A stretch of 48,144 nucleotides of DNA from Ignavibacteriales bacterium (GCA_014727845.1 WJMR01000378.1:1-48144), one strand, 5' to 3'. Numbered from the stretch's first letter, positions 1,216 through 24,989 are shown. Translations and numbers: made by a program. Notes: generated from the sequence alone by a model not told the origin.

Positions 1216-1574
1216 TATGCCTTGGGATTTGTTGTCTAATATGACGTGGAATTTACGAAGGTTCCGCAATAAACCACAGTCCGGAACAGCGTAACGATCC
1301 TTATCGGTTTGGGGGTGTGGATTTTAGCAAATAAATCCCGTAAATTAAAAGTTTATGTGTTCAAACGACGCGTTCGGTTAGTTTTTGGATGGGCGCGATC
1401 GAATGGCTTGACAGAACGGAACGCGGCGATTAATTTACCGCCCTTAAAACGGCGACATCGCCGATTGCAAACGAAAAGAAGGAGTCACGTCCGAAAATTT
1501 GCTACGTCATATCGGGAGCCGCGGAGCGACCGTCGGGTCCCGTGAATAACGGAAATCGCGAATAAAGCGAGCAT

Positions 1575-4500
1575 ATGATGTCAGGCAAATTAGCGGCGTT
1601 CTTTTCGGCGTTGGCGCCCGTTATTGCGTTCGCGCAATTGGGCGACGCGACGACGGTCGTCTCCACTCCGGAGCGACTCGTCTTCGATTACCGCCCCGCC
1701 GTCGTAATAGATTCGCTTTCCCCCGACAACGCCTCCCGACTTACGGATATCCGCGGCTGTCGCCTCGTCGAAGAGCGCGACGGAACGCTCGCTTATGTTC
1801 GATCGTTTCTTATCGGAACGCCTACCGAAACGGGCGCGACGCTCGAAGCGGTCGGTTACGATCCCGTCGAGTACGACGTCGCCTCGAATGACGAGCGCTA
1901 TGCGGACGCGTTCGAGTACGCCGACTCGCTCGACCTCGGCGGCGACGGCGTCCCGGGCGAATTAGTCTCGTTCGGCGCCTATCGCGAAGCGCGCGGCGCG
2001 GGCGTGCAGACGATCGTCGTCCGACCCGTCTTGCGAGTCTCGAGCGGACGAGCGCGCGTCTATTCACGAGTGCGCGTGAGCGTCACGTTCCCCGACGCCC
2101 CGACGAACGTTCGTCCGAACGAGGATCCGCTTATCGACGGCGTCGTACTAAACGCCGACGTCGCCAAACGGTGGCGACGCTCTTCGGCTACATCGAAACC
2201 CGCGCGCGTATCGAGCGTGTTGGCGAGCGGGACGTGGTACCGATTCGAGGCGCCGGAGACGGGGATGTATAAAATCGAACGCGACGAACTCTCGCGTTTC
2301 GGAATCGACCCGACGACCGTCGATCCGAGAACTATTAAGATCTACAACAACGGCGGCAAGGAGTTGCCCGAAGATATCGACGCCGAACGTCCCTTCGACC
2401 TCGTGGAATGCGCCGTGCAAGTGAGCGGCGAAGAGGACGGCTCCTTCGACGAGGGCGACTATGTTCTCTTCTTCGGACGCGGAGCCGTGCACTACGACTA
2501 TAACGAAACCTACAACGTAGTCGGACGATTCATTAACGACTTCTCGAACCGCAACTATTACTGGATAACCTCGGGCGGCGCGCTCGGCAAACGGATGCAA
2601 GACGTCCCCTCGATGAACGATCCCGCGGCCCTACCGAGAACCACCACCAAGGCGTACGATTACGTGGACGAGGACAAGATCAACCTCGGCAACTCGGGGC
2701 GCTTGTTCCTCGGCGACGAGTTCTCTTCCGTGCAACCGTCGCGGACCTACGAGACCGTCCTTGAGCGCCCCGTTCCGGGCGACACGACGACGTATCGATT
2801 CCATCTGGTTAACGCCACCACCGAGCCGGTCGATTACCGGGTTACGGAAAATGGAACGACGATTCGAGACGATGTGATAGGGGGCTTCAATCCCGATAAT
2901 TATTTGTGGGGGACCGCCGAGGAGTTCTGGACCGAATATACCGGAGCGTTTCCGAACGACGTCAGCCGAATCGAGATCGCCGTCTCGGGCGCCGAGTCGT
3001 TCTTCGTGTATTTGGATTTCATCCATATAATTTACCGTCGGTTGCTCGACGCCTTGGACGACGAGATTGTCTTTTTCTCGCGGCAAACCGAGGGGGGAGC
3101 GATCGCGGAATACCGACTGTCGGGGTTCTCGCACGACGACATCCGCGTTTTCGACGTTTCGGACTATAGCGACGTCGCGGCGATTGTCTCGCCGATAAAA
3201 CGCGCCGACGGGGAGTTTCGATTCCAAGCGCTCGAGCGCGATTCGACCATCCGCCAATACGCGGCTTGCACGCCCGAGCGATTTAAGACCCCGATCAATC
3301 CGGAACCCGTCGCGAACCAAGACCTGAAGGGTACGCTCGCCGAGTCGCGATTTATTATCGTAACGCATCCCTACTTCCGAACGGAAGCCGAGCGTTTGGC
3401 GACGCATAAGGAATCCTTGCCCGCTCCGATCTCGAGCGTCGTCGTGGACGTGGACGAAATCTACAACGAGTTTTCCTGCGGGTCGGTCGATCCGAGCGCG
3501 ATCCGCTACTTCCTTAAGTATTGTTACGACTTGTGGACGGTCAAGCCCGAGTACGTTCTCCTCTTCGGCGACGCGACGTTCGACTATCGCGACATGTACG
3601 GCAAGGGGCTGAATTTTGTGCCCACCTACGAAACGGTTTATTCGCTTGGCGAGATCAACTCGTATCCGACGGACGACTACTTCGTCGATCTCGAAGGAAC
3701 CAAATGGACCGCCGATATGGCGATCGGCAGGGCGCCCGTTCGTTCGCTTTCGGACGCTCGGGCGTTCGTCGATAAGGCGATCCTCTACGAGACCGCCTCT
3801 CCTCGCGACTCGTGGCGCAATCGAGCGGCGCTCGTCGCCGACGACCAGATCGCCGAAGGGAAGCGCGAATCGATCCTCCATAGCCACCAGTCCGAAAGCT
3901 TGGAGGAGGGGTATCTCCCCTCGCGGATGGAGGTGCGGAAAATTTACTTAGCCGCCTACCCGACCGCGGTTACGGGCGCCGGGTTGCGGAAACCCGCCGC
4001 CAATCGAGCCATCATCGACGCGATGAACGAAGGGGCGGTCGTCTTGAACTTCTACGGTCACGGCAACAGCGAGTTATGGACGCACGAGCAGGTGTACGTT
4101 TCCTCGTCGAGTCTGGGCAGGAACGTCACCGATCGTTTCTTCTTTCTCACCGCCGCCACATGCGGCTTCGGCGACTTCGATAAACTCGAGGGCCAAAGCG
4201 GCGCGGAGCAAATGGCGCTGAAATCCGACGGCGGCAGCATCGGCTCGATAACCGCCTCGCGCCCGGTTTTCCCGGGTGAGAACCAGCGATTAAACGAGAG
4301 ATTTTACGGCGGATTGTTCCAATCGGGTCGGGACACGCTCAACCTGCCCTATCCCGCGGGTCGCGCCTACTATCAAACCAAGCTCGCGGAAACGAGCGAG
4401 AACTCGCTGAAGTTTTCCCTCCTCGGCGATCCGACCGTGCGCTTGGCGTTCCCTCAATACGAGGCGACGATCGACTCGATTAACGGCGCGCTCTCGGGAA

Positions 4501-5522
4501 CGACGGCGACGATGCGCGCCCTCGGAACGATGCGAATCGAGGGAACCGTGCGCAAATCCGACGGCTCGAAGTGGAGCGAATTCTCGGGCGAGGGACGACT
4601 CTCGGTTTTCGATTCGGACTACGAAACGCCGCTACCCGAGGTAAGCTCGACGTTTGCGATGAACACGCAGGGCGGCGCGATCTTCAACGGCAGAGTCTCG
4701 ATTACCGACGGCGAGTTCTCGGCCTCGTTCGTCGCGCCGAAAGATCTTTCGCAATCGGGCGAGAAGGGGAAAGTCGTTTTCTATTTTGCGGACGACGACG
4801 TTGACGGATTGGGATACTCCGACGAGGTGATCGTTTCGGGCGTGAACGCTTCGGCGATCGACGACGGCGAGGGACCCGAGATCGAGATAACGTTCGACGA
4901 TCCCGCTTTCGACGGCGCTCGACTCGCCAACCGCGACGCGACGCTGGTGGCGACGATCTCCGACGAGACGGGAGTGAACACTTCGACGGCGGGCGTCGGA
5001 CACTTGATGAAGGCGGTGATCGACGGCGACGAGGCGAACCCGATTCCGCTCGGCGACCGCTTTATCGGCGACCTCGACGCGGGCGGGAAATCCGGCGTCG
5101 TCGAGTATCCGCTCGTCGATCTCGAACCCGGACGCCACAGCGTGCGCGTGGACGCTTACGACGTTTTCAATAACCTCTCCTCGCGCGAGCTCGAGTTCGA
5201 GGTCGTGGAGACGGGCGAGCTTACGCTGAAAAACGTGATGAACTATCCGAACCCGACCGCGGGCGCGACCGTCTTTACGTTTCAACACAACTACTCGAGT
5301 CCGCTCGACGTCACCGTCTCGATCTTCACGGTGGCCGGGCGCAAGATCCGCGAGCTAACCGCGTCCGCTCTCTTCGATCGATTCGCGAGGATCCGATGGG
5401 ACGGAAGAGATGATAACGGCGACCCGCTCGCCAACGGCGTCTATCTATATAAGATAACCGCGAAGACGATCGACGGCGAGGAGTCCGAAAGCGTTTTGGG
5501 CAAGCTCGCGATCGCGCGGTGA
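1575..5522 (+). CDS. porU: T9SS C-terminal signal peptidase/sortase PorU (peptidase C25, gingipain-like) with retained C-terminal sorting domain
   Basis: 1315-aa ORF with N-terminal signal peptide (AAFFSALAPVIAFAQ). C25-type His and Cys contexts are NFYGHGNSELW and FFLTAATCGFGDFD. The C-terminal T9SS/FlgD-Ig-like domain reads NYPNPTAGATVFTF...DGRDDNGDPLANGVYLYKITAKT. It sits directly upstream of a PorV homologue, the conserved porU-porV arrangement. Confidence 0.8.
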   Translation: MMSGKLAAFFSALAPVIAFAQLGDATTVVSTPERLVFDYRPAVVIDSLSPDNASRLTDIRGCRLVEERDGTLAYVRSFLIGTPTETGATLEAVGYDPVEYDVASNDERYADAFEYADSLDLGGDGVPGELVSFGAYREARGAGVQTIVVRPVLRVSSGRARVYSRVRVSVTFPDAPTNVRPNEDPLIDGVVLNADVAKRWRRSSATSKPARVSSVLASGTWYRFEAPETGMYKIERDELSRFGIDPTTVDPRTIKIYNNGGKELPEDIDAERPFDLVECAVQVSGEEDGSFDEGDYVLFFGRGAVHYDYNETYNVVGRFINDFSNRNYYWITSGGALGKRMQDVPSMNDPAALPRTTTKAYDYVDEDKINLGNSGRLFLGDEFSSVQPSRTYETVLERPVPGDTTTYRFHLVNATTEPVDYRVTENGTTIRDDVIGGFNPDNYLWGTAEEFWTEYTGAFPNDVSRIEIAVSGAESFFVYLDFIHIIYRRLLDALDDEIVFFSRQTEGGAIAEYRLSGFSHDDIRVFDVSDYSDVAAIVSPIKRADGEFRFQALERDSTIRQYAACTPERFKTPINPEPVANQDLKGTLAESRFIIVTHPYFRTEAERLATHKESLPAPISSVVVDVDEIYNEFSCGSVDPSAIRYFLKYCYDLWTVKPEYVLLFGDATFDYRDMYGKGLNFVPTYETVYSLGEINSYPTDDYFVDLEGTKWTADMAIGRAPVRSLSDARAFVDKAILYETASPRDSWRNRAALVADDQIAEGKRESILHSHQSESLEEGYLPSRMEVRKIYLAAYPTAVTGAGLRKPAANRAIIDAMNEGAVVLNFYGHGNSELWTHEQVYVSSSSLGRNVTDRFFFLTAATCGFGDFDKLEGQSGAEQMALKSDGGSIGSITASRPVFPGENQRLNERFYGGLFQSGRDTLNLPYPAGRAYYQTKLAETSENSLKFSLLGDPTVRLAFPQYEATIDSINGALSGTTATMRALGTMRIEGTVRKSDGSKWSEFSGEGRLSVFDSDYETPLPEVSSTFAMNTQGGAIFNGRVSITDGEFSASFVAPKDLSQSGEKGKVVFYFADDDVDGLGYSDEVIVSGVNASAIDDGEGPEIEITFDDPAFDGARLANRDATLVATISDETGVNTSTAGVGHLMKAVIDGDEANPIPLGDRFIGDLDAGGKSGVVEYPLVDLEPGRHSVRVDAYDVFNNLSSRELEFEVVETGELTLKNVMNYPNPTAGATVFTFQHNYSSPLDVTVSIFTVAGRKIRELTASALFDRFARIRWDGRDDNGDPLANGVYLYKITAKTIDGEESESVLGKLAIAR

Positions 5523-5586
5523 CGTCCGAACGATCCAAACGGTTTTACGATAACAAAAGGAAACCAACTATATTAGAGGAATGAAT

Positions 5587-6780
5587 ATGAGAATCTTCAA
5601 ATTAGGCGTTCTGGCGACGCTCGTCGCGCTCTCGTTTTTTGGAACCGCTCGCGCGCAAGGCGAAGCCGCCGTTCCGTTTTTATTGATCGCGCCCGATAGC
5701 CGCGCCGGCGGTATGGGCGAGACGGGTACGGGATTGGCGGACAACTCCTCCGCCGTGTTCTGGAACCCCGCGGGCGCCGCGTTCTTGACGGGACAAGAGC
5801 TGAGCTTCACGCATAGCAACTGGTTGCCGCAATTCAACCTCGACCTCTTCTACGACTACGCGACGTATCGCGCCTACTTCGAGGAGCTCGACGGAAACAT
5901 TATGGCGAACGTCACCTATATGAACTACGGCGAGTTCCAACGAACGCTCGAAACGGGACCCGAACCCGTCGCCACGTTCCGCTCCTACGATATGGCGGTC
6001 ACGGCGGGCTACGCGACCAAGCTGAGCGAGGACTGGGGCGTCGGCACGAACTTCCGGCTCATCCACTCTCGCCTCGCCGACGAACCGACGGGCGAGGAGC
6101 AGGGGAGCGGCGTCGCCACCTCCGTCGCCTTCGACCTTGCCGCGATGTGGCGACCCGATTCGCTCGTCCTGCCGCTTATCGGCGACGTGAGCAATCGGCT
6201 GAGCGTTGGAGCGAACCTGAGCAACCTCGGTCCCAAGATATTCTACATCGATCAGGATCAAGCCGATCCGATCCCGACGAACTTCCGACTCGGCTTCGCC
6301 GCGCAGGTCTTCGCGGACGACTTCAACAGTCTCACGCTCACGCTCGATTTCTCGAAACTCCTCGTCAGTCGCGAGCCGGCGGTCATCGACTCGGTGACCA
6401 ACGAGACGATCGAGGACGGCTCGGTCGCGCCGTTCTACGAGGCGATCTTCACCGCGTGGGCGGACGATCCGCTCGATCAAGAATTGGCCGACGTCGTCTC
6501 CACCGTCGGTATGGAGTATTGGTACGGCGAGCCGGGCGACTTCCTTTTCTCGCTGCGGTCGGGCTTCTTCTACGAAGACCCCAATCACGGCGGTCGGAAA
6601 TTCATCACCCTCGGCGGCGGCATTCGCTACGACCTCTACGGCGTGGACTTCAGCTACATCTCGACCGCGCCGTTTAAGGACGCCGAGAATCATCCGCTTA
6701 ATGAAACGTTGCGCTTCACCATCCTTGTCGGATGGGGCGGCGTCATCGAAGGACTCAACGGTTTCCCGCGCGGAATGTAA
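5587..6780 (+). CDS. porV: T9SS outer-membrane shuttle/channel protein PorV (LptO family beta-barrel)
   Basis: Signal peptide MRIFKLGVLATLVALSFFGTARAQ. N-terminal PorV/PorQ signature FLLIAPDSRAGGMGETGTGLADNSSAVFWNPAG. About 395 aa with an alternating beta-barrel pattern. The AGAGGA RBS ends 6 nt before ATG 5587; the in-frame ATG 5581 abuts the RBS and is less likely. Confidence 0.85.
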   Translation: MRIFKLGVLATLVALSFFGTARAQGEAAVPFLLIAPDSRAGGMGETGTGLADNSSAVFWNPAGAAFLTGQELSFTHSNWLPQFNLDLFYDYATYRAYFEELDGNIMANVTYMNYGEFQRTLETGPEPVATFRSYDMAVTAGYATKLSEDWGVGTNFRLIHSRLADEPTGEEQGSGVATSVAFDLAAMWRPDSLVLPLIGDVSNRLSVGANLSNLGPKIFYIDQDQADPIPTNFRLGFAAQVFADDFNSLTLTLDFSKLLVSREPAVIDSVTNETIEDGSVAPFYEAIFTAWADDPLDQELADVVSTVGMEYWYGEPGDFLFSLRSGFFYEDPNHGGRKFITLGGGIRYDLYGVDFSYISTAPFKDAENHPLNETLRFTILVGWGGVIEGLNGFPRGM

Positions 6781-6807
6781 CCGAGGGAATCCGCGTAAGG
6801 AGACGCA

Positions 6808-9800
6808 ATGAAGATTTGTATATCGACGCTCGCGGCGACGGCGCTTGTCGCGAGCGTCGCGTTCTCGCAAACGCCGACGGCGAACGCCGACGCCGAACGA
6901 CCGGCGACGCCCAAGCCGACCGGGAACTTCATCTCGCAAACGGTCCGAGGCGCCGCGCCCGATACGTTGCGGATTTTCGCCGCGATGGTCGAGTTCCAAA
7001 CCGACGACGACCGTTCGACCGTCGGCGACGGGACTTTCGGCTCAATTTATTCAGAGGACTACGGCGACGAGATCCTCGATCCGCTTCCGCACGACCGCGA
7101 ATACTTCGAGACGAAGCTGGAGTTCGCCAAGCGATATATCGAGCGCGTCTCGGGCGGAAAGACGATCGTCGAGTATTACGTCGCGCCCAACGTCGCGACC
7201 GTCTCCGAACGGATGCGCGAGTACGCGCCGCCGATCGCCACGAACGATTTCGCTCCGCTCGCCGACTTCGTTGCCGAGTCGTGGACGGTCGTCGATCAAG
7301 CGAACCCCGACGCCGACTTCGCGAGCTACGATCTTTTCGCGATCTTTCATGCGGGCGTCTCCCGAAGCGTCACGTTGCCCGGCTCGCTCGGCAACGAGCG
7401 CGATCTCCCCTCCATCTATTTCTCGTTGGAAAAACTTCGCGAATATTTTGGCGAATCCTACGCGGGCGTGGAAGTGAAAGGCGGCGCCTTCGCGATCCCC
7501 AACACCGCCGTGCTTCCGCAAACGGAAAACCGCGAGCTGGAGAGCTTCGGCGAGAAGTACCTCTTTGAATTGACGACGAACGGATTGATCGTCTCGACGA
7601 TTTGCAGCCACTTCGGATTGCCCGATCTCTTCGACGTCAACACCGGGTTGAGCGCCATCGGCAGGATGGGGCTGATGGACGGTCAGGGCATCTTCGCCTA
7701 TCTCGGCGCATTACCGCCCGCGCCCTCCGCGTGGGAGCGCGTCTTCCTCGGATGGGAGGAGCCGACCGTCGTATCGCCCTTGAGCGGCAAGGTCGAGCTG
7801 GAGGTGGCGGCGCGTCGGGCCGCCGCGGACGGCGACGAGACGGTGTACAAGATTCCGATCAACGAGACCGAGTACTATTTGCTAGAGAACCGACGACGGG
7901 ACGTCAACCAAGACGGCGCGCGCGTGCTCGTCCGAAACGGCGACCGAGAGTATTGGAAAACGTTCGCCGAGGACGAGGACGGCTTTCGCTCCTACGACAT
8001 CGACTCGCTCGAGGGCGTGATCCTCGACGTGGACGAGTTCGATTGGGCGTTACCCGGCGAGGGGATTCTCATCTGGCACATCGACGAGGAGACGATCTCC
8101 GCGACGCTCGACGCCAACGAGGTGAACGCCGATAAGTACCGGCGCGGCGTTGACGTGGAGGAAGCCGACGGAGTGCAGGATATCGGCGAGGAATTTACGA
8201 CCATCTTCGGCGACGTGGTCGTCGGCGAGGGATACTATTGGGATTTCTGGTACGCCGACAACGACGCGCCGCTCTATGAGAATAGGTTCGACGCCGACTC
8301 GCGTCCGAACACCAACGACAACGACGACGCGCGAAGCTTGCTCTCGTTCACGAACTTCTCGGCGATCGGGGATCATATGACGGTCGAGCTCGAATTCGGC
8401 GACGAAGAGATCGCGCCCGTCGCCTCCACGCGATTGGCGAGTGATTTCGAAGGCGAGACGTTCTTCTCGGCGACGGGATCCGCCGACGACGCGCGATTCG
8501 TCGGCGTCGTTAAAAAGAATCTCTACTCGCTTCGTCGCGACGGCACGGTCGCGTTTAGCAAAACGGGCTTCTCGGAACAAACGCTCGCCGCGTTCGAGAG
8601 CGACGCGATCGACTACTACGTCGGCTCCTTTCCGAATCGCGTCAACGTCTTTCGGCACGGCGTCGTCGCGGACGTCGATCGACTCTTGCTCGAGGATCTC
8701 GTTCCCGACGGCTCGAACGACGAAATCCTCACCGCTCCCGTCGTGGCGGCGGGAGAGACGACGCCGGTCGCGTATCTCGGTTTGGCGAGCGGTCGCGTCG
8801 TCGCGATCAAGCTCGGCGACGTTTCGCGCGCGCCCGCGACGGACACGCTTTACGACCTATCCCATCGCGGCAAGCCCGCGCAATTGCTTATCGCCGACGG
8901 CGAGCTCGTCGCGGCGATACAAAGCGACGGCGGTTATTATCTCGCCGCGTTCGACGGACGCGAGACGTTCGCCGACGGCGAGATAATTCGCGCGGCGGCG
9001 ACGAAAACGAGCGCGGGGGAGACGGCGATCGTCGCTTTGGTTGACGGAAATCGTTTCGACGTATGGACCCTCGCGGCGGACGGCTTCGCGGCGTTCTCGG
9101 AGTTCGACGCGCGAGGCGAAAACGTCGAGCGCTTCTCGATTGCGGATTTGCGAAACGACGGCGAGAACTACGTCGTCGCGCCCGTCGGAGGCGCCGTTCA
9201 CGCCTTCACGTTGGCCGGCGCGGAGGCGGAGGGTTTTCCCTTCGAGGACGAGCGATCGGTCGGGTTCTCGGCGCAAATCGCCTCGGCTGATTTCACGGGC
9301 GACGGCGCGAGCGAGTTGATCGCCGCGACGATCGACGGTCGCGTCTTCGCGATCAACTCGAGTGGACGCGTCGCTCGCGGTTTCCCGATCTCGATCGGCG
9401 AGCCGACGGGGGGCGCGCTTGCCGCGATATCTTCCGCAGACTCGACGCTCCTCATCGGCGCGAGCCGGCTTGGCTCGGCGCGCGTATGGAAAATCTCCGA
9501 TCGGTCCGCCGTGCTTGATTGGAACGGCGAATACGGCGACGCGGCGAATGGATCTTTCACCGCGGCGGCCGGCGCCTCGCGCTACGAGACGGCGTTCTTT
9601 CCCGAGGCGAAGGCGTACAACTATCCGAACCCCGTGTATGGCGACCAAACGTATATCCGCTACTATGTCGCCAAGGACGCGGACGTGACCGTGCGCGTGT
9701 TCGACCTCGCGGGCGACTATGTCGCCGAGCTGAGCGGACGCGGAATCGGCGGCGTCGAGAACGAAATTGTTTGGCGGATCGGCGACGTCGAGAGCGGCGT

Positions 9801-9879
9801 CTATCTCGCCGCGTTGGAAGTTCGCGCCGACGACGGAACGACCGCGTCGAAAATCATCAAGATTGCCATCGTAAAATAA
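6808..9879 (+). CDS. secreted M6 (immune inhibitor A)-like domain protein lacking the HExxH motif, with FG-GAP/BamB-like beta-propeller repeats and a T9SS C-terminal sorting domain
   Basis: Strong RBS TAAGGAGA 5 nt before the ATG; signal peptide MKICISTLAATALVASVAFSQ. M6-like blocks are LRIFAAMVEFQTDDD, SHFGLPDLFD, ILIWHIDEE and GVDVEEADGVQD. No HExxH occurs anywhere in the 1023 aa. Propeller-like repeats include ADFTGDGASELIAATIDGRVFAINSSG. The CTD reads YNYPNPVYGDQTYIRYYV...GVYLAALEVRADDG...IKIAIVK. Confidence 0.6.
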   Translation: MKICISTLAATALVASVAFSQTPTANADAERPATPKPTGNFISQTVRGAAPDTLRIFAAMVEFQTDDDRSTVGDGTFGSIYSEDYGDEILDPLPHDREYFETKLEFAKRYIERVSGGKTIVEYYVAPNVATVSERMREYAPPIATNDFAPLADFVAESWTVVDQANPDADFASYDLFAIFHAGVSRSVTLPGSLGNERDLPSIYFSLEKLREYFGESYAGVEVKGGAFAIPNTAVLPQTENRELESFGEKYLFELTTNGLIVSTICSHFGLPDLFDVNTGLSAIGRMGLMDGQGIFAYLGALPPAPSAWERVFLGWEEPTVVSPLSGKVELEVAARRAAADGDETVYKIPINETEYYLLENRRRDVNQDGARVLVRNGDREYWKTFAEDEDGFRSYDIDSLEGVILDVDEFDWALPGEGILIWHIDEETISATLDANEVNADKYRRGVDVEEADGVQDIGEEFTTIFGDVVVGEGYYWDFWYADNDAPLYENRFDADSRPNTNDNDDARSLLSFTNFSAIGDHMTVELEFGDEEIAPVASTRLASDFEGETFFSATGSADDARFVGVVKKNLYSLRRDGTVAFSKTGFSEQTLAAFESDAIDYYVGSFPNRVNVFRHGVVADVDRLLLEDLVPDGSNDEILTAPVVAAGETTPVAYLGLASGRVVAIKLGDVSRAPATDTLYDLSHRGKPAQLLIADGELVAAIQSDGGYYLAAFDGRETFADGEIIRAAATKTSAGETAIVALVDGNRFDVWTLAADGFAAFSEFDARGENVERFSIADLRNDGENYVVAPVGGAVHAFTLAGAEAEGFPFEDERSVGFSAQIASADFTGDGASELIAATIDGRVFAINSSGRVARGFPISIGEPTGGALAAISSADSTLLIGASRLGSARVWKISDRSAVLDWNGEYGDAANGSFTAAAGASRYETAFFPEAKAYNYPNPVYGDQTYIRYYVAKDADVTVRVFDLAGDYVAELSGRGIGGVENEIVWRIGDVESGVYLAALEVRADDGTTASKIIKIAIVK

Positions 9880-9906
9880 GGGCGGCGCGCCGCCCGCGGT
9901 AGGACT

Positions 9907-12900
9907 ATGAGGAACGTTATTTACGTCGCGATTATTCTCGCCTTCCTTGCGGGGAAGAGCGTCGCGCAGATCGACGACTATCATCCCGAGTTCCAATGGT
10001 ACACCATTAAAGGCGAGTACTGCGACGTCCACTTCCACGAGGGCGCCGAGCGCACCGCGCGAACGGTGGCGAGGATCGCCGACGCCGTGTACGAGCCGAT
10101 CACGTCGCTCTACGAGTATCGACCCGGGAAGACGCACTACGTTATCAAGGACATCGACGACTACGCCAACGGCGCGACCTACTTCTTCGATAATAAGATA
10201 GAAATCTGGACCAGCGCGCTGGATATGGATCTGCGCGGAAACCACAACTGGCTTCGCAACGTCATCACGCACGAGTTCACGCACCTCGTCCAGCTCCAAG
10301 CCGCGATGAAGGGATCGCGACGAGTTCCCGCGGTTTATCTTCAATGGCTAAACTACGAGGAGAAGCGACGCCCCGACATCCTCTACGGATTTCCGAACGT
10401 CATCGCCTCCTATCCGCTCCCGTCGATCAACGTGCCGGCGTGGTTCGCCGAGGGAACGGCGCAGTATCAGCGCGTCGAGTTTCGTTACGACGATTGGGAC
10501 AGTCATCGAGATATGATCCTCCGTTGCTACGCCCTCGACGACAATATGCTCACGTGGGGCGAGATGGGCGTCTTCGGGAAATCTTCGCTCGGCAACGAGT
10601 CGGTGTACAACGCGGGCTACGCGTTCACCCGTTACCTCTCGCAGAAATACGGCGAGGAGTCGCTCAAGGATCTTACCGATCGACTTGGGGACTTCACGAC
10701 CGTGACGATGGACGGCGCCTTCGAGGGCGCGCTCGGCGTAACGGGAGAAGAGGCGTACGAGGAGTGGCGGAGTTTCCTCCGAACCGATTACGAAAAGCGC
10801 ACGGCGAAAATCCGCGAGAACCCGGTCGTCGGCGACACGATCGCGGACGTCGGCTTCGGGAACTTTTATCCTAAGCGCGGCGAGGACGGCGCTCTCTACT
10901 ATCTCTCCAACAAGACCGCCGACTACTTCCTTCTTACGGGACTCTATCGCCGCGACACCGCGACCGAGGAGGACGAGCTACTCGTTCCCGGCGTCCACTC
11001 GGCGTACGACTTCCTACCCGGCAAGAACAAAATCGTCTTCGCGAAACTCTCCGACGACAACCCGAACGGCTACAACGTCCACGACCTTTACGTGTACGAT
11101 ATTGCGGAGGACGACGTGGAGCGGCTCACCGAAGGGCTCCGAGCCAATCAACCCGACGTTTCGCCCGACGGCGAGAAGATCGTTTTCCTTTTTCAGAAGG
11201 ACGGCACGTCGAACCTTGGCGTGGTGAACGCCGACGGGAAGAACTTCCGACAGATTACGTTTTTCGGAAACGGCGAGCAAGTGTACGCGCCGAAGTTCAA
11301 TCCCTCCGGGGACTCGGTGTATTTCGGAACGTCCTATCACGTCGGTCGCGACTTGGCGCGGGTGAGCGTCGAGGGCGGTCCGCACGAGGTGGTCATAAAG
11401 GGCGCGCCGGACGCGCGTAACGCGGCGTTTGACGACGAGGGACGCCTGGTGTACGTCGCCGACGAAACGGGCGTCTTCAACGTCTATCGCCTCGATCTCC
11501 AAACGGGCGAGCGCGAGCGACTGACCAACGTAATCGGCGGCGCCTTTCAACCTTCGATCGGCGACGACGGCGAACTACTCTATTCCGGCTACACGTCGCG
11601 CGGATTCAAGATTTTCCGCCTGGAAAACCCGGCTCCCGCGCGGGTGAAGGACGAGCTCGCGTACGACAAGCGCGAGAACCCGCCGCTCGACGATCACAAA
11701 GCCAAAGGCGACGTCGAGACGATTCTCCTCGACACGCTCGCCGCGTTCGACGATCGCGACATGCCGCCGGCGGAGAAGGAACGCTACTCGGGCGAGTTCA
11801 CGTCGCTCTCGTTTTTTCCGTTCCTCCGTTTCGACAACTACAATCAAGACGCCTCGCCGATCGAGCGGATTAAACCGGGCGTGTACGTCGCCTCTTCGGA
11901 TATGCTCAATCGCTACGCCGTCTTCGGCGGCGCGTCGATAAACGCGAACTTGGAGCGCGACCTGTTTCTGATCTTCGACTATCGCGACAAGTTGCCGCTC
12001 CTCTTCGATCTCGGTCTCAATCCAACGATCTCGCTCGAGGCGTATAATATTAGTAGAAAAGCGAACGTCGAGCTGAATTTCGAGGAGGATGAAAATCTCC
12101 CCGACGCGCTACCCACCGTTTGGACGGACGTGGCGTACAACCTGATGGAGTTCGATCTCGTCGCGCGCGACAAAGTGTTCGGCAAGTTCGACGAGTTGGA
12201 GTTGCGCTACATCTACAGTCGCTACACCGCGACGCTCGAGAGTTTCACGCTACCGATCCCGGACAACCCGCAGCTCTACCCGACGACGCACGACACGTAT
12301 CTCTCGGCGGGCAACCTGCAGGCGACGTATCGCGTGGAGCGCTATCTGCCGTACCGCGATCGCGACATCAACCCGATCGGGTGGGAGGCGGAGTTCCAAT
12401 ACAATTACGAGATGAACGAGTTCAACGACGAGGGGGAGTACGAGATCGTGGACGGCATGCTCAAGCCCGTTTACAACACGTACGACTTCCATCGGATCGA
12501 GACGAACCTACGATTTGCCGCGCCTTTCCGGGGGTTGCACACGCTCGGCGCGAGCGTCCGCTACGGCTCGATTATCGGGGAGACCGTGCCGGATTTCTTC
12601 GACTTCTATCTCGGCGGATTGATCGGGATGAAGGCGTATCCGTTCTACGCGCTGAGCGGCAACGAATTGATCCACGGAAATCTCACCTATCGGTTCCCCT
12701 TGTGGCGCGGCATCGACGCGCGGCTGGGTCCGCTCTATCTCGACAAGATGTTCTTCTCGCTCTACGCCGACGCGGGCAACGCGTGGACGGGCGAGATGGA
12801 TTGGGAGAACGACTGGAAGCGCGGCGTCGGGGCGGAGCTCCGCGTGAAGCTCTTCTCGTTCTACCTCTTCCCGACGAGCGTCTTCTTCAACGGCGCCTAC

Positions 12901-12999
12901 GCGCTGGATAAAATCACGCGCGAGATCGACGACGAAATCGTAACCTATGGAGAGGAGTGGCGCTTCTACGGCGGCGTTCTCTTCGGCTTCGACATCTAA
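9907..12999 (+). CDS. three-module outer-membrane protein: peptidase-MA-like zinc metalloprotease domain + TolB/PD40-type beta-propeller + C-terminal Omp85-like beta-barrel
   Basis: Signal peptide MRNVIYVAIILAFLAGKSVAQ. Zinc motif NVITHEFTHLVQ followed by PAWFAEGTAQY (Peptidase_MA_2-like HExxH...EG). PD40-like repeats include QPDVSPDGEKIVFLFQKDGTSNLGVVNADGKN, PKFNPSGDSVYF and FDDEGRLVYVADETGVFNVY. The last ~400 aa have alternating hydrophobic strands ending GVGAELRVKLFSFYLFPTSVFFNGAYALD...YGGVLFGFDI, which resembles the end of a bacterial-surface-antigen barrel. Confidence 0.65.
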   Translation: MRNVIYVAIILAFLAGKSVAQIDDYHPEFQWYTIKGEYCDVHFHEGAERTARTVARIADAVYEPITSLYEYRPGKTHYVIKDIDDYANGATYFFDNKIEIWTSALDMDLRGNHNWLRNVITHEFTHLVQLQAAMKGSRRVPAVYLQWLNYEEKRRPDILYGFPNVIASYPLPSINVPAWFAEGTAQYQRVEFRYDDWDSHRDMILRCYALDDNMLTWGEMGVFGKSSLGNESVYNAGYAFTRYLSQKYGEESLKDLTDRLGDFTTVTMDGAFEGALGVTGEEAYEEWRSFLRTDYEKRTAKIRENPVVGDTIADVGFGNFYPKRGEDGALYYLSNKTADYFLLTGLYRRDTATEEDELLVPGVHSAYDFLPGKNKIVFAKLSDDNPNGYNVHDLYVYDIAEDDVERLTEGLRANQPDVSPDGEKIVFLFQKDGTSNLGVVNADGKNFRQITFFGNGEQVYAPKFNPSGDSVYFGTSYHVGRDLARVSVEGGPHEVVIKGAPDARNAAFDDEGRLVYVADETGVFNVYRLDLQTGERERLTNVIGGAFQPSIGDDGELLYSGYTSRGFKIFRLENPAPARVKDELAYDKRENPPLDDHKAKGDVETILLDTLAAFDDRDMPPAEKERYSGEFTSLSFFPFLRFDNYNQDASPIERIKPGVYVASSDMLNRYAVFGGASINANLERDLFLIFDYRDKLPLLFDLGLNPTISLEAYNISRKANVELNFEEDENLPDALPTVWTDVAYNLMEFDLVARDKVFGKFDELELRYIYSRYTATLESFTLPIPDNPQLYPTTHDTYLSAGNLQATYRVERYLPYRDRDINPIGWEAEFQYNYEMNEFNDEGEYEIVDGMLKPVYNTYDFHRIETNLRFAAPFRGLHTLGASVRYGSIIGETVPDFFDFYLGGLIGMKAYPFYALSGNELIHGNLTYRFPLWRGIDARLGPLYLDKMFFSLYADAGNAWTGEMDWENDWKRGVGAELRVKLFSFYLFPTSVFFNGAYALDKITREIDDEIVTYGEEWRFYGGVLFGFDI

Positions 13000-13021
13000 C
13001 CCGACGATAAAAGGAGACGGT

Positions 13022-13894
13022 ATGAGATTAGCGTTAACCGCGGCGGCGATTGTTTTGGCGGGAATCGCGACGACCGCGCAAACCGTGTCCGAACCGACGG
13101 GCGTGTGGGCGTTGGACGCCGAGACCCTCGCGCAATCCGCGGACTATGACGCCGGCTACTCGGTGGCGCCCGTGCAAGAGGGGCGCAAATCCCCGTTCCT
13201 CGCGGCCGTCCTCTCGGCGATCCTCCCCGGCGCGGGCGAAATCTACAACGGACAATACCTCAAGGGAGCGATCTTCCTCGCCGCCGAAGCGACGCTGATC
13301 GGCGTCGCCGTCGCCTACGATCAAAAGGGGATAGACAAGACGGAGGAGTTCGAGGCGTACGCCGACGAGCATTGGAGCGCGGCGCGATACGCGAATTGGT
13401 TGATGCACTACAAAACCGAGTTCGGAATTACGGACACGATTCGCGTCAACCCCGACGTCTCGCTTCGGCCGTGGGAGCGCGTCGAGGATTGGGAAGAGTT
13501 GAACCGCGCCGAAGAGCAAGTTATGTATCAAGGCAACGCGATGTCCCACCAACTCCACTACTACGGCGAACAACAATACTACGAGATGATCGGCAAGTAT
13601 CGGCAGTTTAGCAGGGGGTGGGAGGATAGCGATCTCTCGCCCGAGTGGTGGGAGGAGGTCTCCCCGATGATGACGCATTACTCGGGGATGCGCGGCGACG
13701 CGAACGACTACTACAACACCGCCTCGACCGCCGTCGTCTTCATCTACGTCAACCACATCTTGAGCGCGATCGACGCGGCGTGGTCGGCGGCGTCGATCAA
13801 CAAGGACCTCGCGATTAAAATGCGAGTCGAACCGAACTATCTCGCCACGCGCGTCGAGCCGGCGCCGCGACTCGCGCTTTCCTATCGCTTCTAA
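13022..13894 (+). CDS. DUF5683-like membrane protein with an extended C-terminal domain
   Basis: ATG 13022 is preceded by AAAGGAGA and gives signal/TM MRLALTAAAIVLAGIATTAQ. The track ORF start 12947 overlaps the upstream gene and is rejected. The motif SPFLAAVLSAILPGAGEIYNGQYLKGAIFLAAEATLIGVAVAY matches the DUF5683 core (PG-G-IYN plus hydrophobic helix). The remaining ~190 aa are unassigned. Confidence 0.5.
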   Translation: MRLALTAAAIVLAGIATTAQTVSEPTGVWALDAETLAQSADYDAGYSVAPVQEGRKSPFLAAVLSAILPGAGEIYNGQYLKGAIFLAAEATLIGVAVAYDQKGIDKTEEFEAYADEHWSAARYANWLMHYKTEFGITDTIRVNPDVSLRPWERVEDWEELNRAEEQVMYQGNAMSHQLHYYGEQQYYEMIGKYRQFSRGWEDSDLSPEWWEEVSPMMTHYSGMRGDANDYYNTASTAVVFIYVNHILSAIDAAWSAASINKDLAIKMRVEPNYLATRVEPAPRLALSYRF

Positions 13895-13959
13895 CGATTC
13901 TTCGGACGCGTCGATTTCGTATATTGACGACAACCTTTACCGTCAACACGGAGCGTTCA

Positions 13960-15012
13960 ATGTCGCGTCGTCGATTGCTCGCGCTAACCGAGGGACTCTC
14001 GGATCCGCACCGGGGCAAGGTCGCCCGCAATCTTCTCAAGTATAAACCCGAGGAAGTCGTCGCCGTCTTCGATCGCGAGAACGCCGGCAAGCGCGCCTCG
14101 GAGTTGTTCGGATTCGGCGAGGACGTTCCCGTCGTCGGTTCGCTCGACGACGCGGCTGAGGCGAACGCGGTCGTTGTCGGCGTCGCCGTGCCCGGCGGCG
14201 TGATGCCGGAGTCGTACGTCGAGATCATGCGCGAGGCGATCCTCCGAGGGATGGACGCGATCTCCGGCTTGCACGACTTCCTCTCCGGATACCCGCGACT
14301 CGTCGATGCCGCGGAGCAAAGCGGCGTTCGACTGATCGATCTACGAAAGACCGCGACCAAGCGGGTCGTGTCGCGAGAGGGGATCGACGAGAGTTGCTAT
14401 CGCGTTCTCACCGTCGGCAACGATTGTAGCGTCGGGAAGATGGTCGTCTCGCTGGAGGCGACGCGCGAGCTTATCCGACGCGGCTACGACGCGAAGTTTG
14501 CGCCGACGGGACAGACGGGGATGCTGATCGAAGGGGAGGGGGAGCCGATCGACGCGATACCGGGGGACTTCATCGCGGGGGCGGTCGAGGGGCTGGTGGC
14601 GCGCAATCAATCGCATGAGGTTCTAATGGTCGAAGGGCAGGCGTCGCTCGTTCATCCGCGTTACTCGGGGGTGACGCTGGGGCTCCTCCACGGCGCGACG
14701 CCCGACGCGTTGGTGATGTGCTACGAGCTTGGTCGCGAACGAATCCACGGCGTCGAGTCGATGAAGATTCCGCCGCTCGCCGACGTGATCGAGTTGCACG
14801 AACGACTCGGGAACGTGATGCGTCCGACCGAGACGGTCGCCTTGGCGATCAACGGCAGGAAAGCCGCGCCGGAGGAGATCGACGCCGAGCGCGAGCGAGC
14901 GCGCCGCGAGCACGGCATGCCCGCCGCCGACGTGATGCGACACGGCGTCGGCGAGATCGTTGACGCGATTATCGAGCGCGGCGTCCGAATCGGCAAACTA
15001 TCTCCTCGCTAA
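13960..15012 (+). CDS. DUF1611 domain protein (DgcN-like family)
   Basis: Blocks VVGVAVPGGVMPE...AILRGMDAISGLHDFL, VLTVGNDCSVGKMVVSLE, FAPTGQTGMLIEG, DFIAGAVE and MVEGQASLVHPRYSGVTLGLLHG are the DUF1611 pattern. ATG 13960 has a GGAG RBS about 7 nt upstream; the track start 13924 is a TTG. Confidence 0.8.
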   Translation: MSRRRLLALTEGLSDPHRGKVARNLLKYKPEEVVAVFDRENAGKRASELFGFGEDVPVVGSLDDAAEANAVVVGVAVPGGVMPESYVEIMREAILRGMDAISGLHDFLSGYPRLVDAAEQSGVRLIDLRKTATKRVVSREGIDESCYRVLTVGNDCSVGKMVVSLEATRELIRRGYDAKFAPTGQTGMLIEGEGEPIDAIPGDFIAGAVEGLVARNQSHEVLMVEGQASLVHPRYSGVTLGLLHGATPDALVMCYELGRERIHGVESMKIPPLADVIELHERLGNVMRPTETVALAINGRKAAPEEIDAERERARREHGMPAADVMRHGVGEIVDAIIERGVRIGKLSPR

Positions 15013-17501: not shown

Positions 17502-17600
17502 ACGTCTCCAAATGCGAGTGAGAAGAGACAGAAATATGAAAAAGAGAAATGAAATCGGAAAGACGACGAACAAGACGTAAAGAATACGTAACGCGTCGGT

Positions 17601-22725: not shown

Positions 22726-23520
22726 ATGCGGTACAAATTCCAGCTCAAGCTTGCGGGGGAACCGCACATTGCGCACAACTATCACGCGTCGCTCGGCGAC
22801 GCCGTTTACAAACTGCTCCGCTTCGACGGGGACGAGTTCTTATCCGACGAGGTCGCGAAGCCGGCGCTTGCGGACGGCGAGCGATACGAATACTACTCAT
22901 ACGCGCTCCGCTTTAGCGAGGTGGCGCCGCAACGCGACGGGTTGAAGCTCAAGAAACCCTACGCCGCGCTCATCTTCAGCGCGCCGGGGGTGGAAGAATA
23001 CATCGCGGGGCTATCCGAACGACTTGAAGGCGAACGCCTCGAGATCTTCGCCGACGGCATCAGAACCGAGTTCGAGATCTCGAAGGTGGAGCCGATTCGA
23101 GATCCGCAGATTAAGCGGATCGACTCCTACACGCTCCTCTCGCCGATGGTCTTGGCGTTGCCGGAGGATCCGAACCAACGCTACTTGCGGCACAACGACG
23201 ATCCCGGGCTCATCAACGAGGCGTTCAACGAATCGCTTCGACGAAAATTTGAAATCGTTAACGGCGAGAAGTACGACGGCGATTCGGCGCGACTCTACTG
23301 GGACCAGAAATACATCTCGAAACGTCTGAAACGCGGCAAGAAGACGACGAAGAAAATCCGCATCTCGAGGAACGGTTCGGCGCCCGAGGAAATCGTCGCG
23401 CTCGAGATTCCGTTCACCGTCGAAGGCGACCCCGAGCTTATCAGAGCCGGTTACCTCGCGGGCTTCGGCGTGAAGAACAACCTCGGCTTCGGGTTGGCGG
23501 AAAAGAAACGATCTCGGTAA
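22726..23520 (+). CDS. cas6: CRISPR-associated endoribonuclease Cas6 homologue (stand-alone in this window)
   Basis: 264 aa, a typical Cas6 size. N-terminal MRYKFQLKL...HIAHNYHASLGDAVYKLL follows the Cas6 first-ferredoxin pattern (xNY...L...iY..L). The C-terminal glycine-rich loop GFGVKNNLGFG fits the Cas6 hallmark GhGxxxxxGhG exactly. RBS AGGAAGG lies upstream of ATG 22726. Confidence 0.75.
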   Translation: MRYKFQLKLAGEPHIAHNYHASLGDAVYKLLRFDGDEFLSDEVAKPALADGERYEYYSYALRFSEVAPQRDGLKLKKPYAALIFSAPGVEEYIAGLSERLEGERLEIFADGIRTEFEISKVEPIRDPQIKRIDSYTLLSPMVLALPEDPNQRYLRHNDDPGLINEAFNESLRRKFEIVNGEKYDGDSARLYWDQKYISKRLKRGKKTTKKIRISRNGSAPEEIVALEIPFTVEGDPELIRAGYLAGFGVKNNLGFGLAEKKRSR

Positions 23521-24730: not shown

Positions 24731-24989
24731 TGACTTGCCGCCGCGAATATAGTTACAAGCGCGCCGCCACACAATAGGGTATTGCACTATTTGAGATTTG
24801 TTGATAACTTGTTGTAACGGTGCATGTGCTTTGGGTCACATAGCTCTCAAGACCAATTCTATATATTATAATCTATGCGCTCGGCTTCTCCCGGAATGGA
24901 ATTGCCGACGCTAATTGAACGCCATCGTCTCCGAAGCGTTTGCGTTGGTATGGGCTCGGATTCGGAGCGACACAAGGAAGGGAACGGGT

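Follow-up and report, generated by a model that had tools for sequence, protein, structure and literature searches.

What do the genes that follow porU and porV in an Ignavibacteriales bacterium contribute to its T9SS? We analyzed the 48,144 nucleotide sequence that carries them (GCA_014727845.1 WJMR01000378.1:1-48144, designated the window). The initial annotation had described a six-gene envelope operon in which three uncharacterised partners of porU-porV could be lineage-specific attachment-complex components, analogous to PorZ and PorQ, or a dedicated cargo-processing module. The coordinates of all features are given in Table 1. The six ORFs and their common direction were reproduced, as were the exact gaps of 64, 27, 27, 22 and 65 nt between them. 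Upstream, the genes are bounded by a divergent arylsulfotransferase gene on the minus strand, which ends near position 1212 (placed after a coordinate shift of 97 nt). Downstream, the limit is a TonB-dependent receptor gene of convergent orientation (15009-17573, minus strand).

Table 1. Features of the porU-porV locus in the window
Feature	Position	Strand	Evidence
Divergent intergenic region 5' of porU with the presumed block promoter	1213-1574	.	inference only
Gene 1, porU, T9SS C25-family sortase, 1315 aa, signal peptide and C-terminal CTD	1575-5522	+	NF033707, Pfam
Gene 2, porV, T9SS outer-membrane shuttle barrel, 397 aa	5587-6780	+	NF033710, Pfam PorV
Gene 3, M6i, secreted M6-like pseudo-protease with beta-propeller and type-A CTD, 1023 aa	6808-9879	+	NF052323, TIGR04183
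M6 HExxH-equivalent position of gene 3, S-T-I-C-S, aa 263-267, ahead of conserved HFGLPDLFD	7594-7608	+	our alignment reading
Type-A CTD of gene 3, aa 939-1023	9622-9876	+	Pfam Por_Secre_tail, TIGR04183
Perfect GC palindrome between genes 3 and 4 (GGGCGGCGCGCCGCCC), without T-run on the plus strand	9880-9895	+	
Gene 4, signal peptide, gluzincin (peptidase MA), TolB-like 6-bladed propeller and predicted Omp85-type barrel, 1030 aa	9907-12999	+	Pfam, AF2, Foldseek
HEFTH of gene 4, aa 122-126, zinc-binding/catalytic; E182, encoded at 10450-10452, is the third ligand	10270-10284	+	conservation
TolB/PD40-like propeller of gene 4, aa 310-572	10834-11622	+	PDB profile, Foldseek
C-terminal barrel of gene 4, Omp85-like, ~16 strands, aa 624-1030	11776-12996	+	AF2 (~16 long strands), Pfam
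YLGGLIGMKAYPFY of gene 4, aa 901-914, presumed Omp85 loop-6 counterpart	12607-12648	+	invariant in Ignavibacteria
Gene 5, DUF5683 protein, 290 aa, signal peptide, hydrophobic segments and invariant C-terminal Phe	13022-13894	+	Pfam DUF5683 5e-10
Gene 6, DUF1611/DgcN-like cytoplasmic protein, neighbour outside the module	13960-15012	+	Pfam DUF1611_N, DUF1611

Signals between the genes also agreed with the initial annotation. Purine-rich, Shine-Dalgarno-like sites precede porV (AGAGGAA), gene 3 (TAAGGAGA), gene 5 (AAAGGAGA) and gene 6 (ACGGAG); the site of gene 4 (GGTAGGA) is weak, as described before, and so is that of porU. In a scan of the window, none of the five gaps contained a plus-strand hairpin followed by a T-run; the plus-strand terminator-like matches were all located within ORFs and were not in excess (24 versus 18.9 +/- 5 in shuffled sequences). 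The palindrome between genes 3 and 4 folds no better than shuffled sequences (z = -0.09) and is probably not a terminator. Upstream of porU, TTGACA is found at ~1408 with a weak TAATTT 17 nt further, a pair that falls below the threshold of the promoter scan. The genes are packed more tightly than by chance: in 80 species genomes of Ignavibacteria, median gaps computed from our own ORF calls were 72 nt for porU-porV, 6 nt for porV-M6i, 29 nt for M6i-gene 4 and 14 nt for gene 4-DUF5683. With gaps that are short, conserved and free of terminator-like sites, porU-porV-M6i-gene4-DUF5683 is most likely a single transcription unit, as predicted from sequence. In metatranscriptomes, matches were confined to three short contigs, of which two map to porU and the third to gene 4.

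Genes 1 and 2 encode canonical PorU and PorV, and both products exceeded the cut-offs of their NCBIfam models. PorU scored 936 bits against NF033707 (T9SS_sortase, cut-off 420), matched Peptidase_C25 (5.5e-88) and contained a CTD/FlgD_ig match at aa 1224-1298; an assignment to PorU2 was ruled out (162 bits, cut-off 450). PorV narrowly passed NF033710 (T9SS_OM_PorV, cut-off 250) with 256.3 bits and matched Pfam PorV (8.8e-32). PorQ (76 bits, cut-off 220) and PorV2 (27 bits, cut-off 325) were rejected for this gene. Gene 5 scored 39.9 bits against PF18935 (cut-off 26.7), a match limited to the N-terminal third of the model, and 66 homologues share the motifs PGxGxxY, QQYYEMIGKY and NHxxSAxDAxW. 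The initial readings of genes 1 and 2 as PorU and PorV, and of gene 5 as DUF5683-like, were thus borne out by matches above the gathering scores or cut-offs, and those of gene 3 (M6-like, propeller and CTD; NF052323 and TIGR04183) and gene 4 (peptidase MA, TolB propeller and barrel; Pfam, Foldseek and AF2) proved essentially right. Gene 6, on the other hand, was rejected as a member of the block. No signal peptide was found in its product, which scored 270 bits against NF041892, below the cut-off of 480, and a DUF1611 gene was downstream of the block in none of 158 other loci examined. Its position here would be an accident of rearrangement, and the conserved unit consists of five genes rather than the six originally proposed.

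We examined 80 GTDB species genomes of Ignavibacteria and a distant set of 80 metagenome loci with gene 4 identities of 33-58%, counting for each gene the testable loci. In Ignavibacteria, gene 4 was accompanied by M6i in 74/74, porV in 70/70 and DUF5683 in 72/72 loci, with porU directly upstream in 60/62. The corresponding values for the distant loci were 49/49, 38/38, 64/64 and 22/34. The order porV-M6i-gene4-DUF5683 was kept in all testable loci of both sets; these four genes are the tightest core, and porU is detachable. Linkage of the three partners to the porU-porV pair therefore held up in related genomes, being total for porV. Their supposed lineage specificity did not, since the module extends beyond Ignavibacteria to several other phyla: distant gene 4 relatives are labelled KSB1/Zhuqueibacterota, Kryptonia, Calditrichaeota, Marinimicrobia/Fidelibacterota (Fidelibacter), Electryonea, Krumholzibacteriaceae and others. 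The same order was recovered by independent gene calls for two contigs (2.4 and 5.4 Mb) and for Ca. Kryptonium, whose M6i and gene 4 ORFs share 4 nt.

The surroundings of the block are far more variable. In typical Ignavibacteria, the block follows nth-HD-Prx and precedes der-upp-relA-ruvX-BMC, the window has arylsulfotransferase and DUF1611 genes in these positions, and glyA-nrdR, gatB, accA or gcvP are found upstream in other lineages. The very long co-linear strings around the block in typical Ignavibacteria would fit a gene order that was simply inherited without selection, so that adjacency has no meaning. We regard this as very improbable: the order survives phylum-level distance (33% identity for gene 4 and 25% for M6i) amid wholly different flanks, it outlived the rearrangement that placed nth 32 kb away in the genome of the window, and the intergenic gaps are short or overlapping. 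Some insertions into the block were also observed, and the inserted genes, too, encode CTD proteins.

Gene 3 scored 879.6 bits against NF052323 (T9SSA_dep_M6i, cut-off 600) over aa 45-1023, a family named "T9SS-dependent M6-like inactivated metalloprotease" in NCBIfam. Orthologues from a KSB1-like locus and from a locus closest to Marinimicrobia sequences were also above the cut-off (676 and 644 bits), and two more distant syntenic orthologues were below it (536 and 500 bits). No HExxH was present anywhere in the gene 3 protein, and the family consensus at the M6 site, ASIASHLGLPDLFD, likewise lacks it. As judged from these residues, gene 3 is an M6-fold protein that has lost its catalytic site, a dead protease. 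Foldseek searches with the AF2 model (pLDDT 75) gave generic 7-8-bladed propellers. The CTD scored 25.3 bits against TIGR04183 (cut-off 23), and its YNYPNP is invariant among 44 homologues. Because this CTD is of type A, the protein is predicted to be exported by T9SS. In local alignments, the gene 3 CTD scored 95 against the PorU CTD and 82-88 against ordinary cargo CTDs, and the PorU CTD scored 43-45 against two ordinary cargo CTDs of the window. The gene 3 CTD is thus about equally similar to both types, which counts against a subunit rather than cargo status; the family name, which casts the protein as T9SS-dependent, also speaks against a role in the machinery.

Gene 4 has a different architecture (AF2 model: pLDDT 77, pTM 0.74). 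None of H122, E123, H126 and E182 varies among 46 close homologues, and the equivalent residues do not vary among 20 distant ones. Although the score against Pfam Peptidase_MA_2 was slightly below the cut-off (30.5 versus 32.4 bits), the N-terminal part has an intact HExxH...E zinc-peptidase site and is predicted to be active. The propeller matched TolB in a PDB profile search (7e-9), in Foldseek (1e-9) and in Pfam TolB models, and Pfam searches gave no POTRA match. The C-terminal part is predicted to be an outer-membrane barrel of the Omp85 type. It scored 20.3 bits (E 4e-4) against Omp85 (PF01103), below the cut-off of 24; only 1/27 close homologues had an Omp85 match at E < 0.01, and a profile search of the barrel against PDB sequences gave no matches. 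Among distant members of the family, at least 10 come with a precomputed PF01103 match, and PGAP names two clusters "BamA/TamA family". For the barrel of the window itself, the Omp85 assignment hangs on the sub-threshold Pfam match. We take YLGGLIGMKAYPFY to correspond to Omp85 loop 6, with the motif defined as (V/I)RG(F/Y); it reads GGLxGLRGYPFY in distant homologues and is degenerate (GGLIGMKAYPFY) in the window and Ignavibacteria.

Proteins of this architecture have been classified before. Heinz & Lithgow (2014) described "WD40-like Omp85" proteins, a subfamily of the Omp85/TpsB superfamily in which, as in gene 4, the Omp85 barrel is preceded by an aminopeptidase-like domain and a TolB-like propeller and POTRA is absent, and read them as resembling a BamA-BamB fusion (PMC4104836). 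In the supplement, their best structural matches were TolB and an M1-type aminopeptidase (tricorn-interacting factor F3), and a few non-FCB UniProt entries were included (PMC4104836). That study assigned no function to them and noted no link to porV or T9SS, and gene 4 is likened to them by architecture. Hence two of the three partners initially called uncharacterised, genes 3 and 4, already belong to named classes. Our literature search found no paper describing the five-gene module, nor a description of the linkage of gene 3 to porV, gene 4 and DUF5683. The non-FCB organisms are presumably devoid of T9SS, and the WD40-like Omp85 fold is therefore not T9SS-specific.

A fold of this kind could serve a single substrate. 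Omp85 barrels with N-terminal enzymatic domains other than POTRA are known, for example PlpD (PMC11116518), and gene 4 might act on M6i alone, either as its maturation protease or as a transporter of the type-V-like (PlpD/TpsB-style) kind. The pair and DUF5683 would use PorV as a shuttle for this one protein and form a self-contained surface structure (adhesin or S-layer anchor) outside the general T9SS. M6i adjoins gene 4, at times with the 4 nt overlap, and 12/34 distant loci keep porV without porU. However, the type-A CTD of M6i is normal and points to a need for the general T9SS translocon, gene 4 lacks POTRA, no sign of export of its N-terminal domains was seen, and porU adjoins the block as a rule in Ignavibacteria. 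We consider such a system improbable.

The P. gingivalis attachment complex (PorU-PorV-PorQ-PorZ) allows a further comparison. In this complex, PorZ binds anionic LPS and is held at the surface by PorQ via its uncleaved CTD (PMC12365241). The sortase PorU and the shuttle barrel PorV are common to it and to the block of the window; both also have a second outer-membrane barrel and a further large surface protein that bears propeller and CTD (M6i in the window, PorZ in P. gingivalis). However, PorZ has two propellers, whereas M6i has a dead M6 domain and one propeller, with no sequence similarity beyond the CTD. The PorZ model NF052228 (cut-off 260) did not match gene 3 of the window at E <= 0.01, distant orthologues matched only its positions 669-757, the CTD (22-39 bits), and a PDB profile search with gene 3 did not retrieve PorZ at E <= 10. 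No block gene exceeded the cut-off of the PorQ model NF033711. The gene 4 barrel was rejected as PorQ: it is Omp85-like, with ~16 strands and a predicted live zinc peptidase and TolB-like propeller, unlike the 14-strand barrel of the PorV/PorQ type. The DUF5683 protein is extra. Thus, the earlier suggestion of PorZ and PorQ analogues found no support from homology; a functional analogy is possible. In P. gingivalis, porQ and porZ presumably do not adjoin porU-porV, whereas the genes of the window are clustered.

A second precedent is the BamA-BamG pair of the Bacteroidota BAM, in which an Omp85 barrel is tightly joined to a 14-strand barrel of the FadL/PorV type, the anchor for subunits exposed at the surface (PMC12578637, PMC12611786). 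Gene 4 differs from BamA in having a protease and no POTRA, and PorV is the T9SS shuttle rather than BamG; the pairing of gene 4 with PorV is a prediction from gene linkage, the BAM pair serving as its precedent. BamD-like (YfiO) and BamG-like genes were found near the block in some lineages, which fits a general role in outer-membrane biogenesis equally well.

Such a role would make the block an operon but not a part of the secretion machinery. M6i would be a universal T9SS cargo, for example an adhesin or binding protein on a dead protease fold, and gene 4 and DUF5683 a general pair for outer-membrane biogenesis or periplasmic quality control, with gene 4 as an Omp85 paralogue carrying a tethered protease, like BamA/TamA fused with a DegP-like function; co-expression with porV would mean only that all are envelope housekeeping genes. 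The NCBIfam name, the likening of WD40-Omp85 to a BamA-BamB fusion (PMC4104836), the BamD-like and BamG-like genes that flank the block in one lineage and the long co-directional housekeeping strings around it in typical Ignavibacteria all favor this possibility. However, the flanking housekeeping genes vary by lineage, whereas the core is unseparated in 38-74 of 38-74 testable loci from several phyla, and linkage so tight and so old usually reflects physical or functional interaction rather than mere co-expression. In addition, what is inserted into the block is more CTD proteins, and synteny with porV over such distances is not seen for ordinary cargo genes. On this evidence, we find a purely housekeeping role rather unlikely.

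M6i, gene 4 and DUF5683 are probably unrecognised T9SS parts or dedicated clients. We would give roughly even chances to the block being an ancient, vertically conserved T9SS module of non-Bacteroidia FCB that forms an extended attachment/processing complex outside the model Bacteroidia; as to its function, we infer either a PorZ/PorQ-like accessory complex or cargo plus quality control. As part of an extended complex, M6i would be a fixed surface subunit rather than ordinary cargo. A PorV-type barrel would hold it through its CTD, in the way that PorV holds PorU and PorQ holds PorZ in P. gingivalis, and M6i might assist the sortase as a scaffold without catalytic activity or by presenting substrates to it. 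Gene 4 would lie beside PorV in the outer membrane, following the Omp85 and FadL-type barrels of BamA-BamG, and its propeller-gated peptidase on the periplasmic side could process, or else clear, T9SS substrates or intermediates that bear the CTD. DUF5683 would be a small membrane partner of gene 4.

More tentatively, and with a less than even chance in our estimate, M6i may replace PorZ, and gene 4 with DUF5683 may replace or supplement PorQ, so that the T9SS attachment/sorting station of Ignavibacteria, KSB1, Kryptonia, Marinimicrobia/Fidelibacterota and related FCB would depart in its construction from that of P. gingivalis. If so, T9SS would gain a previously unrecognised proteolytic, Omp85-based component, and the PorQ/PorZ arrangement of Bacteroidia could have diverged from an ancestral state that the module represents.

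Genes for the T9SS sortase PorU and its partner PorV were found to be genetically locked to three further genes, encoding an M6-like inactivated metalloprotease (M6i, gene 3), an HExxH-containing protein (gene 4) and a DUF5683 protein (gene 5). A gene 4 profile searched against one genome per GTDB species detected at least 577 relatives, and the best 80 were all from Ignavibacteria, including Ignavibacterium and Melioribacter. We examined these 80 loci by tblastn with the window's proteins, counting contigs that reached the expected position and requiring the same strand and order. M6i (74/74), porV (70/70) and porU (60/62) occurred upstream of gene 4 and DUF5683 downstream (72/72), which bears out the proposed synteny of the three partners with porU-porV. 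Median gaps at these loci, based on our own ORF calls, were 72 nt (porU-porV), 6 nt (porV-M6i), 29 nt (M6i-gene 4) and 14 nt (gene 4-DUF5683). The same order was present in independent public gene calls for a Kryptonium MAG, with a 4-nt overlap between M6i and gene 4, and for contigs of 5.4 Mb and 2.4 Mb, the latter without porU.

The block was also detected far from the window's own lineage. When 1.8 billion cluster representatives were searched exhaustively with gene 4, 693 clusters were obtained at E < 1e-30, with many full-length relatives at 30-46% identity. Named sources of the distant clusters were candidate division KSB1/Zhuqueibacterota, Calditrichaeota, Ca. Kryptonium, Marinimicrobia (including the cultured Fidelibacter multiformis), Ca. 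Electryonea clarkiae and Krumholzibacteriaceae. A profile built from distant gene 4 sequences then gave 80 metagenome loci, 33-58% identical to the window's gene 4, in which M6i (49/49), porV (38/38) and DUF5683 (64/64) were always present and porU was found in 22 of 34; thus, porV is a fixed member and porU a detachable one. Loci sharing 64-76% identity with named KSB1 and Electryonea proteins also had the block. The initial annotation's suggestion that the partners could be lineage-specific does not hold, since they also occur in KSB1, Kryptonium and Electryonea-like loci beyond Ignavibacteria. For all five block proteins of the window, nearest relatives were from Ignavibacteria. Gene 4 shared no more than 59% identity with any species representative, and the host is therefore placed on a deep, high-GC branch. 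The window's DNA occurs in microbial-mat and marine-sediment metagenomes, and its proteins are 99% identical to those of a 172-kb contig of an ENA metagenome assembly.

The genes surrounding the block are unrelated housekeeping genes that vary by lineage. Typical Ignavibacteria have nth-HD-peroxiredoxin directly upstream of porU and der, upp, relA, ruvX and bacterial microcompartment shell (BMC) genes downstream, the BMC genes lying in a long conserved co-directional string, whereas other lineages have glyA-nrdR, gatB, accA or gcvP upstream. In the window the ancestral flanks are gone and the five genes are still together; nth (endonuclease III) lies 32 kb downstream, which shows that the ancestral neighborhood was rearranged and the five-gene block left intact. 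Given the synteny counts and this persistence amid changing flanks, the conserved unit is porV-M6i-gene 4-DUF5683, usually headed by porU. Linkage so tight and so old points to physical or sequential cooperation of the products; that the gene order is inherited and meaningless appears very improbable.

Within the window (G+C ~60%), the six co-directional ORFs previously reported were recovered, with recomputed gaps of exactly 64, 27, 27, 22 and 65 nt. The purine-rich ribosome-binding sites were likewise found, as GGAG-type Shine-Dalgarno-like sequences before porV and genes 3, 5 and 6, and were weak before gene 4 and porU. A consensus scan detected no hairpin plus T-run on the + strand in any gap, as had been noted; terminator-like sites overall numbered 24 versus 18.9 +/- 5 in shuffled sequence, i.e., no excess. 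A perfect GC palindrome without a T-run, overlooked in the initial annotation, occupies the gene 3-gene 4 spacer, and its folding energy is ordinary for its composition (z = -0.09 versus shuffles), as is folding of the gene 5-gene 6 spacer. A terminator or attenuator role for the hairpins in these two spacers was rejected, as they fold no better than shuffles. The block is limited upstream by a divergently transcribed arylsulfotransferase gene and downstream by a convergent TonB-dependent receptor gene, whose stop overlaps that of the DUF1611 gene by 4 nt. Metatranscriptome contigs covered the block in three short pieces only (two in porU, one in gene 4), and contigs from sequencing runs of unspecified type were fragmented and of low depth and do not decide co-transcription.

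Coordinates of the porU-porV block, its surroundings and features at compared loci (L-numbers)
Feature	Locus	Coordinates	Strand	Remarks
porU (gene 1)	window	1575-5522	+	
porV (gene 2)	window	5587-6780	+	signal peptide ends before Q (...AQ)
M6i (gene 3)	window	6808-9879	+	signal peptide ends before Q (...SQ)
Gene 4	window	9907-12999	+	signal peptide ends before Q (...AQ)
DUF5683 (gene 5)	window	13022-13894	+	signal peptide ends before Q (...AQ)
DUF1611 (gene 6)	window	13960-15012	+	
GC palindrome	window	9880-9895		gene 3-gene 4 spacer
Hairpin	window	13909-13931		gene 5-gene 6 spacer
TonB-dependent receptor	window	15009-17573	-	
Orphan cas6	window	22726-23520		
PBECR2 protein	window	24915-25817		
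T9SS cargo pair	window	26143-27822, 27835-30492	-	
nth	window	47244-47888		
porU called as two genes	L002	1671-5616		ENA assembly, same organism
M6i-gene 4 insert	L003	8524-9936		also L006, L008, L012
M6i-gene 4 insert	L013	9276-9878		
BMC genes	L014	21529-22776		and equivalents
CreD-family inner-membrane protein	L100	8632-9942		inside block, KSB1-like locus
Unannotated genes, 409 and 349 aa	L164	8757-9986, 13093-14142		either side of gene 4, 5.4-Mb contig
BamG-like barrel	L113	353-1561		~4 kb upstream; NF053685 167 bits, below cut-off
BamD/YfiO-like lipoprotein	L113	14013-14819		directly downstream of DUF5683

Several other features of the window were observed. For an orphan cas6, the ORFs scanned included no further cas gene, and no CRISPR array was found within 21-26 kb; a nearby gene encodes a protein with a PBECR2 (Barnase/EndoU/RelE-like) nuclease domain. 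Two T9SS cargo genes lie side by side, one for a right-handed beta-helix protein and the other for a DUF4962 protein, and their C-terminal sorting domains (CTDs) are identical at 75 of 93 positions, which suggests a recent duplication or conversion of the CTD.

The initial annotation had read genes 1-2 as porU-porV, gene 3 as an M6-like/propeller/CTD protein, gene 4 as a peptidase-MA/TolB-propeller/barrel protein and gene 5 as a DUF5683-like membrane protein, and all four readings agree with our searches. PorU (NF033707, 936 bits, cut-off 420) has a C25 peptidase domain and a CTD, and PorV scored above the cut-off of its own model (NF033710, 256 bits, cut-off 250) and just 76 bits with the PorQ model. 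porU is a single ORF of 1314-1315 aa in the window and a Logan assembly, and is called as two genes (231 and 1085 aa) in the ENA assembly, probably through an assembly frameshift in an N-terminal extension of ~214 aa outside the PorU model. The signal peptides of all four secreted block proteins end just before Gln, the pattern known as the 'Q-rule' of Bacteroidetes signal peptidase I substrates (PMC5837995).

M6i belongs to the NCBIfam equivalog NF052323, 'T9SS-dependent M6-like inactivated metalloprotease', with a match over its full length (880 bits, cut-off 600). It contains a signal peptide, an M6-like domain without any HExxH, in which S-T-I-C-S occupies the expected place ahead of a conserved HFGLPDLFD, a propeller at approximately aa 540-925 (AF2 pLDDT 75; matches to generic propellers) and a type-A CTD, and is thus a predicted T9SS-exported pseudo-enzyme. 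Homology to PorZ was rejected: the PorZ model did not match gene 3, PorZ was absent among PDB profile matches at E <= 10, and Foldseek with the whole model returned generic propellers alone. Comparison of CTDs did not separate 'retained' from 'cleaved' types.

Gene 4 has a signal peptide followed by a helical HExxH domain, in which residues H122, E123, H126 and E182 do not vary among 46 close and 20 distant homologs, a TolB-like propeller matched by sequence profile (7e-9) and by Foldseek (1e-9), and a C-terminal barrel of ~16 strands (AF2 model, pLDDT 77, pTM 0.74). Foldseek with the whole model was dominated by TolB-like propellers and uninformative on the barrel, and a barrel sequence profile had no match in PDB. 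Of 27 barrel sequences scanned with Pfam, one matched Omp85, that of the window, and the match was weak (20 bits, cut-off 24); distant relatives have PF01103 matches and a GGLxGLRGYPFY motif, and some are annotated by PGAP as 'BamA/TamA family outer membrane protein'. In its domain layout, gene 4 corresponds to the 'WD40-like Omp85' class described by Heinz & Lithgow 2014, for which TolB and tricorn-interacting factor F3, an M1-type aminopeptidase, are given in the supplement as the best structural matches (PMC4104836). Together, these features suggest that the barrel is Omp85-like and that gene 4 encodes a predicted outer-membrane protein of the Omp85 type whose gluzincin site is intact. It is not a PorQ homolog, and this candidate was rejected. 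With neither homology standing, the proposed PorZ/PorQ analogy of the partners can only be meant in a functional sense.

The product of gene 5 is a predicted small membrane protein that has a signal peptide, hydrophobic segments and several invariant motifs; its C-terminal Phe is likewise invariant. Gene 6 is DUF1611/DgcN-like (270 bits, cut-off 480), lacks a signal peptide and is predicted to be a non-envelope protein; it follows the block in this lineage only, being downstream of gene 4 in 0 of the Ignavibacteria loci, and the six-gene envelope unit originally proposed is reduced to five genes.

How might these proteins cooperate? As the N-terminal domains of Omp85 proteins are periplasmic, the targets of the propeller-gated peptidase of gene 4 would be T9SS substrates, intermediates or CTDs in the periplasm. 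Its barrel may be seated against PorV, by analogy with BamA-BamG, a pair formed by an Omp85 barrel and a FadL/PorV-type barrel (PMC12578637). M6i would most simply be a CTD-anchored surface subunit partnering the sortase, in the manner of the PorU-PorV and PorZ-PorQ pairing of the attachment complex (PMC12365241). We give about even credence to the module being such an extended attachment/processing complex. A dedicated single-substrate system seems rather unlikely. The main rival, possible but less probable than the extended complex, treats M6i as a universally conserved cargo, and gene 4 and DUF5683 as factors of general envelope biogenesis or quality control. Consistent with it are the wider occurrence of WD40-like Omp85 proteins and the BamD-like and BamG-like neighbors of one distant lineage (L113, with similar surroundings at L108, L124, L143 and L156), which hint that the module is connected with outer-membrane biogenesis genes. 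If it were true, the block would offer a useful annotation rule and leave the T9SS picture unchanged. Genes occasionally inserted between M6i and gene 4 in some Ignavibacteria are themselves CTD proteins, either a 470-aa C25 peptidase with a CTD (mini PorU/gingipain-like) or a 200-aa CTD protein.

The partners had been called uncharacterized; their families are in fact already catalogued (NF052323, WD40-like Omp85, DUF5683). The searchable literature contained no paper tying porV/porU to M6i, gene 4 and DUF5683, or treating DUF5683, and what appears to be new is the invariant association of these families with porV/porU. To our knowledge, understanding of T9SS comes almost wholly from two Bacteroidia models, and its component list beyond Bacteroidia is essentially unexplored; questions in the field include cargo handover from translocon to sortase, supply of the anchor, and the fate of cleaved CTDs and stalled substrates. 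The module is real, phylogenetically broad and T9SS-linked, with a putative functional role. Four to five genes locked to porV across several phyla provide three concrete candidate T9SS components, including a barrel of the Omp85 family whose predicted peptidase site is intact, and cultured carriers are available in Ignavibacterium album, Melioribacter roseus and Fidelibacter multiformis. The module would place two orphan families, 'WD40-like Omp85' and DUF5683, in a functional context for the first time, and is clearly of interest to specialists on T9SS and Omp85.
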